Assembly (NCBI GenBank): GCA_017654855.1 | Contig: CM030338.1 | Location: 992,001 to 1,056,000, forward strand | From: Podospora anserina | Taxonomy: Eukaryota | Length of the DNA: 64,000 nucleotides | Direction of reading: 5' to 3' | Shown: one piece after another, positions 39,222 through 47,900 of the stretch | Numbering within the stretch: position 1 is the first letter of the stretch | How the letters are laid out: each line of letters opens with the position of its first letter | Notes under the pieces: model-generated | Seen by the model: the letters and a program-made list of their open reading frames with translations, nothing else | Databases searched by the model: none | Told to the model about the DNA's origin: nothing | Made by a program: the position numbers and the translations under genes

Positions 39222-40907
39222 ATGACTTCAAACGCCCCCTATCCCCCAGCTCTAGATGCAGGTCTGGAGACAGAAAGACTGTCTCAGACTATCAAGGATT
39301 GGTCAATCGCCAATGGGCTTGCCGTCCGTCCTCCTCCTGCATTGGTAGGCCAGAATCAAGACCCTGAGGGAATTCTGGCCATCAATGCCCCTGTCACGCT
39401 TTTCCCAAGTCCATTCCCAAAAAGCTGCTTCGAGGAGGCAAAGGCAATCCAGACGAACTACAATGAGTTGTATGCTCGAATTAGTCAGGATGAGGAGTTT
39501 TTGGGCCGTCTTGTTCAAGAGTAAGCTGCCAACACAACTGTCGAGATATCGATCTTAATACTGACCATGTTAGGGTTGCCGGTGGTGATGATTTTATTGC
39601 CAAACTCTGGGAGATTCATCTCAAAGTAAAAGAGGAAGGCTATGTTCAGGTAGGTCGCTGTCTGGCTGGTGTAATGGCCCCTGCTAAAAACCGTGTGTTA
39701 GAACCTCTCTCTTGGTCTTTTCCGGTCAGACTACATGGTTCACCAAGACGGTGACCACCTCCAAATTAAACAGGTTGAGTTCAACACGATAGCCTCTTCC
39801 TTTGGAGGGCTCTCTGCTCAAACCTCGCTGCTCCATCAGTACCTATCCCCTTGCCACCTCAAGCACTCACTCACACATGATACTAACACCCGCTCCAGAC
39901 ACCTATCAAAAACAGAATACCCCCTCCTAACCACCCCCATCCCCCCCAACACCCTCAACCTCCCCCCCAACACCTCCGCCCACTCCCTCGCCGCCGGCCT
40001 CCGCGCCGCCTACGAAGCCTACGGGCCCTCAATCCTCAACCACCCAACCTGCATCCTTTTCATCGTCCAAGACGGCGAACGCAACATCTTCGACCAACGC
40101 CACCTAGAATACTCCCTCCAACAATCCTCCATCCCCGTCTTCCGCCTCCCCTTCTCCCAACTCCTAACCCACACCACCCTCTCCCCCACCCCCCTCCGCC
40201 AACTCCTCTACCACCTCCCCCACAACCCCTCCCAAATCTTCGAAGTAGCCGTCACCTACCTCCGCGCAGGCTACGGACCAAACGACTACCCCGCCCCCTC
40301 ATCCTGGCTCGCCCGCCGCAGAATCGAAACCTCCAACACGATCCCCTGTCCCACAATCCTAACCCAGCTAGCCGGCATGAAAAAGGTACAACAAGTCCTC
40401 GCCACCCCTCCCGGCCCTTCCACCCTCGCCAAATTCATCCCCGACGAAGAAAAATCTTCCGCGTTGTGGAGGACTTTCACAAACATCTACCCCCTGGACA
40501 GCTCCTCCCCCGCAGGGAGGGAAGCCCGGCGCCTGGCCACCGACCCGAAAGAGTGTCTAAAGTACGTCATGAAGCCCCAGAGGGAAGGCGGCGGAAACAA
40601 CTTTTACAAGGGCGCCATCCCGGAGCAGCTGAAGAAGGTGCCCGAGGAGCACTGGAATAGTTTTATTCTGATGGAGCTCATCACGCCGCCCGCGGTGCAG
40701 AATACCATCCTGAGACAGGGGAAGCTGGAGCAGGGGGGCGTGATTTGCGAGTTGGGGGTGTACGGGACTTGTTTGTGGGATCAGAAGACCGGCCAAGTCA
40801 AACACAACGAAGAGGCGGGTTACCTACTAAGGACAAAGGGGGATCAGAGCGAGGAGGGGGGTGTGGCGGCTGGGTTTGGGTGCATGGATTCTGTTGCTTT
40901 GGTGTAG
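39222..40907 (+). CDS. GSH2: Glutathione synthetase; 4 exons
   Basis: APVTLFPSPFP, LGLFRSDYM, KQVEFNTIASSFGGL, KPQREGGGNN and EGGVAAGFG motifs. Confidence 0.97.
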
Positions 40908-41165
40908 ACCTTCGAGTGTGAATAGCAGCCTCCAAGGACATAAAGATGCAATATAGTTGTATTCAACATAGAGACAGGACTAAACAATGTTCATTCCACC
41001 TACCTCCCTTCACCCATCACTGCCTGTGTACCTAATTATATTCTTATACTTCAGCTTTTCCGGACCCTTTCACCAAACTAGCACCCCAACCAAGCAATAA
41101 CAATATCCCAATCTTTCAAACGCACCCCCTCCCACCCTCATATCCCAGCCCACTCCCAACCGCAC

Positions 41166-43247
41166 TCATCCCCACCGACCAACTACTCCCAAAACTCGAC
41201 CCGTTCCCTCCTGACCCCCCTCCGTCCCAGCTCCCCCCTCCCTAGTCAAATCAGTACTAATCACCAAATCATCCTTCCCCCTCAAATGCAACACAATCGT
41301 CAACCCTTGAATCCCAACATCATCATCCTCATCCCCTGCCACCATCACCGTCCCCGTCCCCGCAGGACCTGTTGCAGTCCCCCCAACACTACTCCTCTCT
41401 CGCCGGCCTCCTCCACCAAGCCGGTTACTCCCATCAATCGTAGCCTCACTCGTCGCCTTTGAAGCAGCCCTAGCCCCAGCCCCAGCCCCAGCAGCCATAC
41501 TCATATTCACAGAAGACGGCACCTTCCAAAACCCAGACGACCCATGAGAATGATGCTGTTGCTGACCACCAGACTGCTGCTGCTGCTGTCCAGGAGGAAA
41601 AGGATAACTCCTCAGCTGTTGTTCTTGTTGTTTCTGTCCCTCACCCCGTCTCCCAAGCCCCCCAGGCGACACCTGCGAGTTTGATCCTTGCCGTGCATCT
41701 CCATCACCACCAGGTCTCACCACAGTAACAGTAGCAGTGGAATCCGTCGTACCCCTCCCCTCCTTCTTCTTTCCCCCCAGTGACTGCTGACCCAACTGCG
41801 GACTACTCTTCGTCTTGCTCGAATCCAACCCCACCTTTTTCAATCTCCCAGCAATACTCCCCGGTTGAGCGGCCACCGAAGCAGCAGAAGCAGCAGAAGA
41901 AGAAGAAAAGGGGCCAGTGCCCTTGAGCCAGGCAGGCGGGCTAGTAACTCTAGCACGAGGAATAGACTTGCCACTGCTCTTACGACCTCCCCCAGTCTCC
42001 ATCCCACTATTGTCCTGAGCAGAACCACCACTGTCCACATCCACCTGAAGAACCTGCTGCAATGCCCCGGACTTATTTGTCTGAGCAAGAACCTTGACCC
42101 GTCTCAAAACAGGAGGCGTAGTCCTCTCCTTTTCCCGTCTCGCCTGTTGGTGCAAGACGTGAGCTCTATCATTGGACGCCTGAAATGTCGGAGAAGGCGT
42201 AGTAGGATCTGGCTCCCGATCCGGGCGGTGAACATGAGGACCATCCTTGGCCTGCAGAGCAGCAGTCCTTTCCTCCTCCCTCTCTTCAGCGGCAGCAAGC
42301 ATACGTGCACTATTGCTTGGAACTCCAGGTGAGGGGGGCGGGACAACCGACGAGCCCCTTGACGAGCTAGCATAACTGTGTGACAGTCTCTCAGGGTGGG
42401 GCTCCCTCTGGCTCTGTTGAATCCGGGGATGTTCGACAGCGTCAGTCGGAGCAACAGGTACACGACGCTTGCGGTCAACAACAGTGGTAAGATCATACTT
42501 GGGCAGCTTCGAGACAGGAGGCATGGCAACGACAGGAATAGTTGTGCTGCTGACTTGGGGATCCGAAACCTTTCTGGCAATCTGGTCGGCAATGACGAAC
42601 GGATTCGTCTTCTGTCATTGCTGTCAGCATATCCCTAACCAAAAGTAAAGAAACAAACCTACCACGGGCCGCCTCTTCTCAACAGCAATGATCTCCCCAT
42701 TCGACTTCCTGACAACCTCCACCAAGCCCCCTCCCTCCCCATCAGGCGTCATAGCAGCAGCAGGTGAAGGCAATCCAGTAGCAACAGCCACACTCACCCT
42801 TTCAACCTCGTCCCCTACCCTCCCCCGTCCATGCTTCTCACTACCACCATCCCCATTCGCACTTCCCATCTCCTGTCTATTCTGCGGAGAAGGTTCCTTC
42901 CTGCACCTCCCACACAAAGGATGCCCACAAGAAGGACAATACAACTGCGGCCTAACTCTGTCTCCACAAACATGACAAACCGTCACTGCCGGCTCCCTTG
43001 ATCTTCCCCTCATATCCTTTTGGTCTCGATCTTCTCCTCCTCTTCCTCCCATGTTCTCCATCTCTCGATCAAGGTACAGACCGGCATCATGACTGTCAGC
43101 CTCATCCTCAGACAACTAGCCCGACGGTCTGGAAATATTGTACTGCTCAAACAGCTCCATGGCAGCGATCCTCCGCCCGCTCTGGGATGTCCCACCGCTG
43201 ACGAAGCTTGCCAGCGAAGGCTCCGAGATCTCGCGAGGGCGTGGCAT
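41166..43247 (-). CDS. Fungal protein with a Cys-rich module and C-terminal GLTIVLHLRGKDDLVISTDL motif, interrupted by an in-frame TAG at 43116-43118; a further upstream exon from 43710 is possible
   Basis: MPRPREIS...LFEQYNISRPSG*LSEDE...CHVC...CPSCGHPLCGRC; intron 42662-42612 (GTAGGT...GCTGAC...CAG) joins in frame to ORF 41166..42524. Confidence 0.7.
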
Positions 43248-44171
43248 CTTTTCTTTAACCTCAGGCACCGAGGGAAGAGGAGGTTGTTCTTGTTGTTGTT
43301 TTTGGTGAGAGCTTGAAGCAGGGCGGACAGTAACCCTGATGGAAAGGGTACAAGAGCTATGGTTACCCGGCCGGTCGAAGCAGGCTTCCGATGCGCCTTG
43401 TTGCTGTGTATCCCAGTAGAGCGTCAGTAAAAAAAACACAAAACCAACACGCTGGAAAAAGAGGTCAACAAACAAGTTCACCCTGCCTATCCCTCGTACT
43501 CAGCAAACGATCCGACCTCGATACGCCTCGCTCAAGCAATGGCTGAGATGTCCGCGTCTTTGTCGTGCCTTCAGGGACAGCAGGGGACTTTTGTTGATGT
43601 TCTCGCTGAATCGGCACTAGTCGGTCTTCCGTCTTCCCTAACCTGGGGCTCGAGCGGCTGTTGGCAGGCGAGGGCGTGGCAATGCGAGAAAATGATGGAA
43701 AATAAAGCATCACAGTATTCGTCAGCCAGTAACATAAACACACTATAAAGTATGCTGGCGTCGAAATGGATGCCTTGTAGCGAATATCCGGTAACCAGCT
43801 GGTGTGCCCGGATTCCGTCAAGAATGAAAAGATGTTGTGGTTTTAGGATATACGGAAGGATGTTTGCAAGAGAAGATTCAGAGAGCAGGTCCACCTCCGG
43901 ATTTTTGGGAAGCCAAACTACCACTCCGCGCTCTGACATAACGGGCAAGAAAGACCCAGACAAATGGGCCGGCATAGCACTACCCCTACTCAACAGATAA
44001 TAAGCAATGGCAACCGCGATCAACTCAGCAACTACCTAGCACATGCAACCTCGGGCCGCCTCTAACCCCCAAGACGATAACAGTCCGGCTCATGAAGCAT
44101 CTCTTGGACTAGATAGGGAATCTTTTGGATGACGTATTCTACAGGGAGGGTTTATTGGTGGGGTTGTACAT

Positions 44172-44978: not shown

Positions 44979-47900
44979 GGTGATGGCGGCGGTCTCAATG
45001 GGTCAAGTCCTTCTCGATATGTCGTCGGCTCTCCAGCTTTGCCCAAAATCCGGCGATTGACTGGAACCAATGGAACCGGGATTGTCCGGTTCGGCTACGC
45101 GGAAACGTTTTTGCGGGGCTTGAGGTGGGAGGTGGAGAGGAGAGCGCTTGCTGAGCTCAGCCAAGCTTGCACAAGTTCAGATGATTGCATAAATTACGGG
45201 TAGATGCATATACACTTCAAGGTTGATGGGACTGTCCATCGTGGTGCATCATCAACACCTTTATGACCAGAAACCTCACTTGACTGACTTGCTGAAGTCC
45301 CAAAGTGCTGGCCAGGCAAGAACCGCATATTCTAGCCCTTTTTTGCCAGTATATCCCTCAGAGCACAACATGAAGCCCTAAAAACCTTCCTTGGACGTTG
45401 TGCAACAACCAACATGCCTTCTAGTCTCAGTGGCTGATGAGCAGAGCAAATTGTCCGGCCACGCCGCAGAAGATTCACTCAACCAACCGTTGTATTCCCC
45501 CCAACCGATCTCCAAAAATCACAAGCTGGCGGTTGCTGTCAACAAGAGAGAGCTCGCTGTCAGTTCCCCCGAAGCCGCGATTCAGCACCATCCCCACCCG
45601 TAGCTCATGCCCTGACTGACCTTCTCAACATCATCCCATGGATGTGATGCCTTCATGCTGCCGCTGTGATGCACCGAGCTTTCTACGTTTTAAATCCCTC
45701 AAAACCATCCGCTAAAAAACCGGGTACCCGCGTCTTACTGTCTAGCTGTCAAGAACCATAACCTGGAAGGCGTATCCATGCTAATACGTACCCGGACCCG
45801 GTTTCCGCTTGGAGGTTGGGAAAGGGTTCATCCTGTGCACGGCAGTTTGCATCATCGGTCAAGGATGGGAGAGCAACGTGATCCCAGAGGGAGGTTTAGG
45901 GCTTGACGTAGATAGTTTTGATGTGGTTTCATGTCGTGAGTGAGATGCAAGCACATGATGATGGAAACTGGACGCGGGCAAAATTGGCCTAATAAAATTT
46001 CAGGTCAAGATAACGTACAGATACAGATGGGATTTCGGGGGTTTACCAAGACCGGGGAAATGCCATGCTTGGGTTAGAAGATGTGGGATGTTTGACCTGA
46101 AGATGGAATGGGGACCACACCAACAAACATGTCAGCTGCTCAATTCCGAGGTAAGAAGAGACGTCTCAGAAATGGTCCCCCACCACAGGCCCTTCGGGTA
46201 CTCCCACCTTTTGTGTTTCTGTTCATCCGATGTGATCTGCGGAAGAATCCGAGTTGTTATTAAGGTATACTGTGCTTCCCCGGAAGTGGCAGGTCAGAAG
46301 TAAGTAGTTTCCCTAACCCATCAGCAAGCATACATACCAACCTATCCACGTGGTTTGTCTTCCCCCCCCCCCCTGTGTCACGCAAAGGTGGTTACAAAGT
46401 GTGGTCTGTTCTTTGTGTTGCATGTGTGACACCCAAGAAAACGTCTGTCTTTTTTGCGGCCCAACTCTGGGCTTGAACTTTCCGTTTTCTTGAAGGTTCG
46501 ATGTTGTGTGATGTGTGACCCAGCGACCCCACCTGGTGATGAATGAGTAGTGAAGTAGAGTCAATCGCATGACCACTCTTTGGTTGGTCATTTTCTTTGT
46601 AGCCCAGGCTTGGTTCCTGAACCCCAAAACCAACTAGACAATGAGGAGACAAAAGAACTGCCCTTTTTAGGTAGTTTTCTTCTTTGATGTTTTGGCTGGC
46701 TGCCACATGGAGAACACGGGAGATCGGAATAGGGCCATAGCGATACCGGCCGTGAAATGGCCCCGAGCTTGAGGCTATGGTTTTTAACTTTTATTATTGT
46801 TCGGGCTTCGCCGAAGAAACTAAACGGCCCGTAGCCAGTAGTCTTTTGTTTATTTGGTCGATACGTCACTTTATGGGGTTCTTTTTGGTCCGTAGGGAGC
46901 TCCCGTCTGCATGAGCCGTTTACGATTGCGATGCCGTGTAAGCCGGATGGCATCGTACGTCTTTCCTGTGCTTGGATAACAAATTCCACCACTCTTAGAA
47001 ATGTGTCGTCGTCGTCGTCTTCTGTGTGGCTTTTGGGCGATCCCAATGAGGGGCACCGTTTTGAGGTTGGAATTACGGGCCACAAGCAACAACAAAAAAA
47101 AACCTATGGGCTCGGTGACATTGCGCCTTAACAGCTTTAGCGGCACAGGTATCAGGTTTCATAGCAGAGACATATCGACGTTGGTTCCCTTCGGGTTGCC
47201 GTTTGTAGTCGTGTCATCGTCTGAATGAAAGATTACCCCACGCTATCTGATGGTCGTAGCACTGCGGGGTAGTTGAGGGTGGTTGTTTCTGTGTCTTCGG
47301 GCCGGGTGAAGTTGCTTGCCTGCCCCGGACTACAAGCCTCTGAGATTTGGAGATTGGGTTCCTTTCGCTTCTGGCGCGTGCAAATGCGCAATCAATCTCT
47401 GGCCGCTCGCGCTATCGTGTCGTCGGCGAACTGGAGGCAGGGAGGTTGGGTTCGTTGATCACGGTATCGCCTTGGTCCAATCATCCAGCGCCCTCTTGTG
47501 CATCTTGGCGGGGTAAGGAGATGGTGTTGTGAGCTGCAGGTATTCAGCGTCAACGGTTACCTACCATTCCATTTACGCTCAAGCGCGCGGGTTGGACTAT
47601 TACGAATGTCGCTGAATAGTGCTCTGAGTTGCATCTGCTTCGTCACGGGTGTCAGACTGAGGGAGCATTCCAAGTTCTATCTCTGCTAGTCAGCTTCACT
47701 TTGAGCTGCCTGAGCAATAAGGAAGCGTGGGTTAGCGACGGAGTGAGCCAGCAAACTCTGCGCTGGCGAATCCTCAATTCCAATAGAGGCACGCAAAATA
47801 GGAGGATAGAGATTGGAGGAACAAGTCAAGCGAGTAAACCCCCACGACAAATGGTAGCCCGAGCCGTTCGGCCTCCCACTCTTGGAGTTGCATCCAAGGT

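Follow-up and report, generated by a model that had tools for sequence, protein, structure and literature searches.

The Pa_7_2175 gene and its in-frame TAG codon

The 64,000-nucleotide stretch of Podospora anserina DNA analysed here (the window) carries on its minus strand the chromosome 7 gene Pa_7_2175, whose reading frame is interrupted by a single TAG codon. We describe the structure of this gene, the conservation of the codon, and the case for regarding Pa_7_2175 as a candidate premature-stop-correction (PSC) gene, in which adenosine-to-inosine (A-to-I) editing of the transcript would restore a full-length protein. P. anserina belongs to the family Podosporaceae in the order Sordariales, and the name Pa_7_2175 was found in no paper of the literature searched. 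The public protein of the gene (P0029, PODANS_7_2175, P. anserina S mat+, 614 aa) is, compared by eye, identical to the window translation from the Met that follows the TAG onward, and the exon-2 translation matches uncharacterised proteins of the P. anserina species complex with 98% identity.

To define the transcript we used contigs of one DNA run (X15) and of three runs of uncertain kind (X1, X2 and X11) mapped to positions 41000–43650. Because the X1, X2 and X11 contigs carry spliced joints, we treat these three runs as RNA. The resulting gene model comprises the following features.

43708–43710, minus strand: probable true start ATG; no other in-frame ATG lies upstream of the 5′ intron, and the peptide downstream of it aligns with the N-termini of relatives
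43474–43710, minus strand: coding exon 0, 79 codons, traversed by X1 and X2 RNA contigs that splice at 43474; lies outside the public 614-aa model
43404–43473, minus strand: 5′ intron of 70 nt, GT..AG (GTTTGT...CTGAC...CAG), not recognised before; an X1 contig and an X2 contig both join 43403 to 43474, with plus-strand ends CT..AC
42663–43403, minus strand: exon 1, seen in the sequence and in RNA contigs, with a conserved N-terminal motif, the TAG and a zinc module
43116–43118, minus strand: the TAG, in frame as codon 175 of 807, with 43117 (T on the plus strand) as the candidate edited A
43059–43061, minus strand: next in-frame ATG, 19 codons beyond the TAG; the public 614-aa model starts here
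42612–42662, minus strand: intron of 51 nt, GT..AG; joint 42611/42663 in one X1 contig, while X2 and X11 contigs stop at 42612
41169–42611, minus strand: exon 2, 481 codons, followed by the stop TGA at 41168–41166

The 51-nt intron had been proposed from the letters of the sequence in an earlier note on this DNA, and the X1 contig establishes it as a real splice. The 5′ intron is new, and its removal puts the upstream exon in frame with exon 1. The same junction is present in a Logan RNA-contig open reading frame (ORF), P0037, in which exon 0 is joined to exon 1 and which ends at the TAG; judged from the start of this ORF, RNA cover reaches at least 43821. With both introns removed, the ORF from ATG 43710 has 807 codons and its sole stop is at codon 175, there being no other stop or frameshift, so that a 174-aa product is predicted without editing. 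Within the first 174 codons the alternative frames contain 3 and 9 stops. Homology between this N-terminal part and the N-termini of relatives spans the exon junction, with identities of 44–52% over 127–133 aligned residues in Podospora australis and two Cladorrhinum species (52% over 128 residues for the Cladorrhinum samala protein and 44% for P. australis); the identity to the Thozetella protein is 33%. Since the spliced upstream exon is seen in RNA contigs and the N-terminus is homologous to those of relatives, the public 614-aa model appears to be truncated by 193 codons and to need one added exon and intron. The earlier note had counted from ATG 43247, obtaining 43 aa, or 676 aa if the TAG is read as Trp. 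The arithmetic holds (195 + 481 = 676), but the start is probably ATG 43710, giving 174 and 807 aa instead. Its observation that the frame stays open for more than 600 codons beyond the TAG is borne out, with 151 + 481 = 632 codons.

The TAG lies in the minus-strand context TCC AGA CCG TCG GGC TAG TTG TCT GAG GAT GAG. That it is a single in-frame stop in an otherwise intact gene, as the earlier note had it, is seen in the sequence, in the DNA contig and in contigs of all three RNA runs, with X15 (DNA) and X1-3, X2-11 and X11-7 (RNA) reading the codon unchanged. The X15 contig (20,366 nt) has 0 differences over the whole stretch and so speaks against an assembly error, with the limit that it may itself be the source of the window. 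The RNA contigs cross the TAG unspliced and with 0 differences (X1 over 42769–43403, X2 over 42844–43403 and X11 over 42933–43162). Mature mRNA thus retains the stop, and the majority form captured by the contigs of the three runs has no intron that would bypass it. Other records also speak against an assembly error: in all six annotated species of the P. anserina complex the models begin at the Met after the stop, and the Logan ORF P0033 begins at the codon directly following it.

The codon in relatives and in metagenomic lineages

We searched the exon-1 translation, without a profile, against 1.84 billion representative proteins and obtained 42 matches. When matches from the other searches are included, 33 fetched proteins beyond the window's own contain the motif around the site. 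Trp occupies the site in 25 of them, within GISRPxG-W-LS(D/E)(D/E) (one of these, P0065, was scored by eye), and Leu in one (P0071). Four terminate exactly at ...ISRPSG, namely P0037, P0038, C. samala P0048 and P. australis P0066. The remaining three are gene models, from Apiosordaria backusii and two Cladorrhinum species, that skip from ISRPS to a later residue. The codon is also skipped in models of Cercophora scortea and of a Naviculisporaceae species, and a Trichocladium protein with a diverged motif has His at the site. Among the relatives that read through the site Trp is thus found in 25 of 27, with one Leu and one His, and for this reason Trp is, judged from these sequences, the ancestral and almost invariant state of the codon. 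The named Trp-bearers include Thozetella (Chaetosphaeriales), Stylonectria and Cosmosporella (Nectriaceae) and several Xylariales. The ortholog alignment consequently places the TAG opposite Trp in most relatives, and the TAG itself is also conserved.

In P. australis and C. samala the gene is annotated as two models on one contig, the first of which ends ...ISRPSG. For species other than P. anserina and the metagenomic lineages described below, the identity of the stop codon was read from protein models. At this level the Podosporaceae annotation behaves throughout as though a stop were present, and the public models of these relatives appear to be wrong, being cut short, divided into two genes, or given an invented intron across the stop.

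DNA-level evidence came from metagenomes. A scan with a single-protein query matched 280 patterns and yielded 0 relatives, and a scan with an alignment of C-terminal halves (A1) recovered three loci, L001, L002 and L003, each of which resembles the window in having the ATP synthase delta gene as its immediate upstream neighbour, in the same orientation. L001 and L002 represent one lineage, with a synonymous divergence (dS) of 0.02 that leaves the ratio of nonsynonymous to synonymous divergence (dN/dS) between them uninformative. The proteins of L001 and L003 are at most 35–42% identical to any named relative compared. All three loci have TAG in frame at the homologous codon, L001 and L002 reading YGVSRPSG-stop-LSDEEDD and L003 reading YGISRPSG-stop-LSDDDEAD, and in L001 and L003 the reading frame past the TAG continues into the zinc module. 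The codons around the site are GGC TAG CTG TCG GAC in L001 and L002, GGC TAG TTA TCG GAC in L003 and GGC TAG TTG TCT GAG in the window, so that GGC TAG is invariant amid third-position variation (TCG/TCT, CCG/CCC, TTG/CTG/TTA and TCT/TCG). The codons after the stop retain the family motif LS(D/E)(D/E) in frame, with synonymous differences, and are therefore unlike an untranslated spacer or an intron.

Between lineages dS is 1.2–3.9 or undefined. The dN/dS check downstream of the stop that the earlier note proposed gives about 0.2–0.5, as it does upstream, which indicates that coding is kept on both sides, although the ratios are crude because dS is saturated. The last 42 residues before the stop are 90% identical to those of A. 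backusii, against 63% for exon 2. The TAG is thus not private to the strain: it is present at the DNA level in two other deeply diverged lineages, and gene models end at it in two further Podosporaceae. As far as these comparisons reach, both reading frames and the TAG have outlasted the turnover of silent sites.

The Trp-bearers closest to the TAG lineages around the site are P0040, 55% identical to L001, and P0041, 45% identical to L003, and their proximity hints that the stop reverted or arose more than once. A tree of the region around the site (29 rows and 182 columns, built with a quick method and with the Podosporaceae protein pieces and skip-models left out) gave no resolution of the Sordariales-like rows, and hence of a single versus a multiple origin of the stop, P0040 and P0041 being unresolved beside the TAG lineages.

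RNA context, protein features and neighbourhood

The earlier note gave the immediate context of A43117 as U at −1 and G at +1, and the sequence bears this out; the same two bases flank the A in all four sequences (window, L001, L002 and L003) and agree with the published editing preference (PMC11156358). Two hairpins can be drawn around the site.

43108–43124, minus strand: predicted small hairpin with a 6-bp stem (43124–43119 with 43113–43108) and the 5-nt loop UAGUU; minimum free energy (MFE) fold in 31- and 51-nt contexts
43109–43131, minus strand: the CAGAC/GUCUG hairpin of the earlier note, with a 13-nt loop; arms present, −4.3 kcal/mol

When the closing C-G pair of the smaller hairpin is open, the loop becomes the 7-nt CUAGUUG. 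The helix pairs in 23 of 24 cells over the four aligned sequences and includes one compensatory change, a G-U/U-G swap. In the 61-nt context A43117 is instead a bulge, with a z-score of 0.04. The predicted probability that the A is unpaired is 0.81–1.0 in P. anserina, 0.83–1.0 in L003 and 0.24–1.0 in L001. This predicted structure is compatible with editing but is no evidence for it. The larger hairpin was set aside since another fold is the MFE structure: its arms do exist, but it reaches only −4.3 kcal/mol and differs from the predicted fold. When its arms are aligned by eye, four of the five pairs are kept in L001 and two in L003.

The recognisable parts of the protein are the N-terminal motifs, GISRPSGWLS(D/E)(D/E), a Cys4 zinc module, NPF(V/I)IADQ and the strongly conserved C-terminal GIQGLTIVLHLRGKDDLVISTDLT. 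Two of these are located as follows.

42903–42977, minus strand: Cys4-type zinc module, CHVC-x12-CPSCGH-x2-CGRC, seen in the sequence and conserved in relatives
41244–41324, minus strand: most conserved C-terminal motif, DDVGIQGLTIVLHLRGKDDLVISTDLT, with columns 430–456 invariant or nearly so in an alignment of 10 relatives

The zinc module put forward in the earlier note is real as a conserved Cys4 arrangement, but the Pfam matches to the protein (13, all weak) fall below the curated cut-offs, the best being zf-B_box at 16 bits against 24.1 (E 0.013), with RING and zinc-ribbon families also sub-threshold. None of the five full-length relatives scanned has a Pfam family above its cut-off either. 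Membership in the B-box/RING class, as suggested by the UniRef label 'B box-type domain-containing', is not supported, the best Pfam score being under the gathering cut-off. The Thozetella relative is modelled in the Atlas with little structure, at a predicted local distance difference test (pLDDT) score of 0.41, and the ESM Atlas offered no usable structural neighbour (best 0.80).

On the 5′ side, an X1 contig (3082 nt, depth 450) and an X2 contig (2900 nt, depth 253.5) extend more than 2.1 kb upstream of 43650. The extended stretch holds the ATP synthase delta-subunit gene on the minus strand, with its ATG at about 44977 and its stop at about 44172. Contigs spanning both genes could arise either from overlap of untranslated regions or from transcriptional read-through out of the highly expressed upstream ATP synthase delta gene. 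One further start codon lies between the two genes.

43733–43735, minus strand: out-of-frame upstream ATG opening a 54-codon ORF that overlaps ATG 43710; seen in the sequence (ORF 43571–44035)

It sits 25 nt upstream of ATG 43710 and is a possible upstream ORF if transcripts begin upstream of it. Further out, a run of about 11 G at 46352–46363 on the minus strand is intergenic and upstream of the ATP synthase delta gene. On the other side, a long ORF of the plus strand at 39702–40907 (401 aa from stop to stop) runs convergently towards the 3′ end of Pa_7_2175 and, judged by eye, may encode a glutathione-synthetase-type ATP-grasp protein.

Proposed restorative editing and its alternatives

We consider it probable, at somewhat better than even confidence, that Pa_7_2175 is a PSC gene in which UAG is converted to UIG by A-to-I editing at A43117. 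The conservation of TAG at an otherwise Trp codon, with coding retained on both sides, looks like the comparative signature of PSC editing and makes the gene a well-supported candidate at the level of sequence. According to this reading, translation in vegetative cells would start at AUG 43710 and halt at the UAG, giving a 174-aa N-terminal fragment, and the UAG-bearing mRNA might be a target of nonsense-mediated decay. During sexual development a stage-specific Tad2/Tad3 would deaminate A43117, which is preceded by U and lies in a loop-like context. The resulting UIG would be decoded as Trp, and an 807-aa protein, mostly disordered and with a zinc module, would be made. Full-length protein would then be restricted to fruiting bodies, as the earlier note had also supposed.

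Editing of this type has precedents. UAG-correcting A-to-I editing is known in Fusarium and Neurospora (PMC10776026, PMC11156358). PMC10776026 reports that PSC sites derive mainly from TGG, that they arose within Sordariomycetes, at times repeatedly at one site, and that they substitute more slowly than neutral TAG-triplet sites; it also gives 71% of PSC genes as encoding disordered proteins and 43 of 71 as encoding hypothetical proteins, with essential PSC sites mostly N-terminal to conserved domains (PMC10776026, Feng et al.). The Sordariales Neurospora crassa and Sordaria macrospora are listed among the fungi that edit at the sexual stage, and the enzyme is given as Tad2/Tad3 with stage-specific isoforms and cofactors (PMC11156358). 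In P. anserina itself, genes of the ADAT type are up-regulated during perithecium development, according to a preprint (bioRxiv 10.1101/2024.12.09.627484).

Pa_7_2175 resembles the PSC pseudogenes of Fusarium graminearum (71 genes, among them PUK1, AMD1, FgAMA1 and FgRID), as described in PMC10776026 and PMC11156358, in having one in-frame UAG in an otherwise intact gene, an ancestral TGG, U at −1 and G at +1, a TAG retained across species, an N-terminal site before a conserved module, and a largely disordered hypothetical protein as its product. It differs from them in being known here as a candidate from sequence and in having a host in the Sordariales; the Nectriaceae relatives Cosmosporella and Stylonectria carry Trp at the site. 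PSC editing in N. crassa is from the same order as Podospora and involves UAG-to-UGG correction in perithecia (PMC10776026, PMC11156358). No Neurospora or Sordaria member of the Pa_7_2175 family is among the named matches. The CUAGUUG loop (CUAGUUA in L003) is also similar to the 7-nt anticodon loop in which Tad2/Tad3 edits A34 of tRNA: the target A is the third base of the loop and has a U before it, the arrangement of U33 and A34 in tRNA numbering. A34 editing is reported to share the loop and the −1 U preference (PMC11156358). The Pa_7_2175 element differs from tRNA in being a coding segment of an mRNA with a short stem that lacks statistical support. A conserved premature UAG is found, too, in the F. 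graminearum gene CHE1, whose editing, however, is described in PMC11169179 as taking place in vegetative hyphae and as induced by oxidative stress.

Several observations weigh against restorative editing at this site. The published preference is for U at −1 and for A or G at both +1 and +3 (PMC11156358), yet +3 is U in all four sequences. In a 31-nt context the small hairpin does not stand out from shuffled sequence (z = −1.15), its covariation score is equalled by 113 of 500 shuffles, four of its six pairs never vary, and its probability is 0.03–0.13 with flanks of at least 40 nt. In L001 the A is predicted to be paired in some contexts, with an unpaired probability of 0.24–0.25 at 60–100-nt flanks. 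No P. anserina editing catalogue was found in the literature searched, and no Trp-bearing Podospora protein was found in a collection of 5.8 billion proteins (2 matches in a near search and 4 in a longer one). No A-to-G change at 43117 is present in the contigs of X1, X2 and X11, which keep the majority base only. Because contigs drop minority variants and the samples are of unspecified developmental stage, we regard the A in these RNA contigs as weak counter-evidence. Finally, the frame offers a Met soon after the stop (19 codons on in P. anserina, 8 in L001, 13 in L003), from which a C-terminal product could arise without editing. It is the lack of an edited read, together with this Met in each lineage, that holds our confidence where we have placed it. 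The downstream Met lies at 43061 in the window, at about 4523 in L001 and at about 4139 in L003, and is a possible internal start; in L001 and L003 it substitutes the Leu of a D-L-S-L-S-G-D-G segment found in the Trp-bearers.

The downstream Met is also the basis of the alternative that the gene was split long ago by a TGG-to-TAG change and is not edited, the 174-aa peptide and the 614-aa protein being made separately with both under selection, and the latter starting at the next in-frame Met by way of an internal transcription start, leaky scanning or reinitiation. In the P. anserina complex the public models of 6 of 6 species do begin at that Met, the locus is annotated by JGI as two separate genes in both P. 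australis and C. samala, an in-frame Met lies 8–19 codons past the stop in all three TAG lineages, and the RNA contigs show the unedited form. Starting a model after a stop is, however, what a gene caller does by default on meeting one. Further, the codons between stop and Met hold LS(D/E)(D/E) in frame, which a spacer need not do, and the position of the Met differs between lineages. All three lineages have TAG as the terminator though any stop would do, and on a full-length mRNA the internal Met comes only after a 174-codon ORF and three or more in-frame AUGs. In eukaryotic initiation a long upstream ORF and several AUGs make reinitiation inefficient. We regard a split gene as unlikely, though as the likeliest of the alternatives to editing. 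Coding kept on both sides and the motif after the stop would be explained equally well by low constitutive readthrough of the UAG by a near-cognate tRNA, giving full-length protein independently of editing. The base after the stop is nevertheless U, C and U across the three lineages and the following codons differ, so that no conserved context is visible, and the efficient readthrough contexts known to us (UGA-CUA-type and UAG-CAR-YYA) are not present at the site. Readthrough also leaves unexplained why TAG specifically should stand at an ancestral TGG in a fungal class that edits UAG, and we consider it improbable.

A minor or stage-specific splice that removes the stop can be drawn in two ways, as a GC-AG intron at 43120–43064 (57 nt), which reproduces the ISRPS/E... 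junction of the Apiosordaria model, or as a GT-AG intron at 43143–43093 (51 nt). Both are in frame, a CTGAC branch-like motif lies at 43099–43095, and models of A. backusii, two Cladorrhinum species, C. scortea and a Naviculisporaceae species skip the codon. Against this, the X1, X2 and X11 contigs all cross the region unspliced with no joint there, the skipped segment is conserved coding sequence in the Trp-bearers and stays in frame in L001 and L003, and the 51-nt candidate would remove the conserved YNISRPS. The skip points moreover differ among the models, as would be typical of gene callers dodging a stop. A bypassing splice is accordingly very improbable in our estimate. There is next to no likelihood that the TAG is a recent defect, whether a young pseudogene, an assembly error or a lesion of the repeat-induced point mutation (RIP) type private to this strain. 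A TGG-to-TAG change is a G-to-A transition in a TpG context, that is, a RIP-type change, and to this extent a young lesion would be in keeping with the sequence. The same TAG is nonetheless found in three lineages with saturated synonymous divergence, the X15 contig agrees with the window, and 807 codons have accumulated no further stop or frameshift; a RIP lesion and an assembly error were set aside on the first two of these grounds.

Restorative editing and internal initiation might also operate side by side. In this more speculative scheme, which we put forward tentatively and think rather unlikely as a whole, the TAG would be an order-level, anciently fixed switch giving three products: a vegetative 174-aa N-terminal peptide, a 614-aa C-terminal protein initiated at the internal Met, and the 807-aa fusion, made only upon Tad2/Tad3 editing of the anticodon-loop-like CUAGUUG in sexual development. 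What maintains the invariant GGC and the covarying serine third positions would, in that case, be RNA structure and not protein.

If Pa_7_2175 is indeed corrected by editing, it would be a restorative-editing gene in the genetic model P. anserina with a stop whose conservation extends well outside a single genus. It is disputed whether fungal restorative editing is adaptive or just tolerated, with papers on both sides (PMC10776026 and PMC13431901), and the deep conservation of TAG at an otherwise invariant Trp bears on that question.

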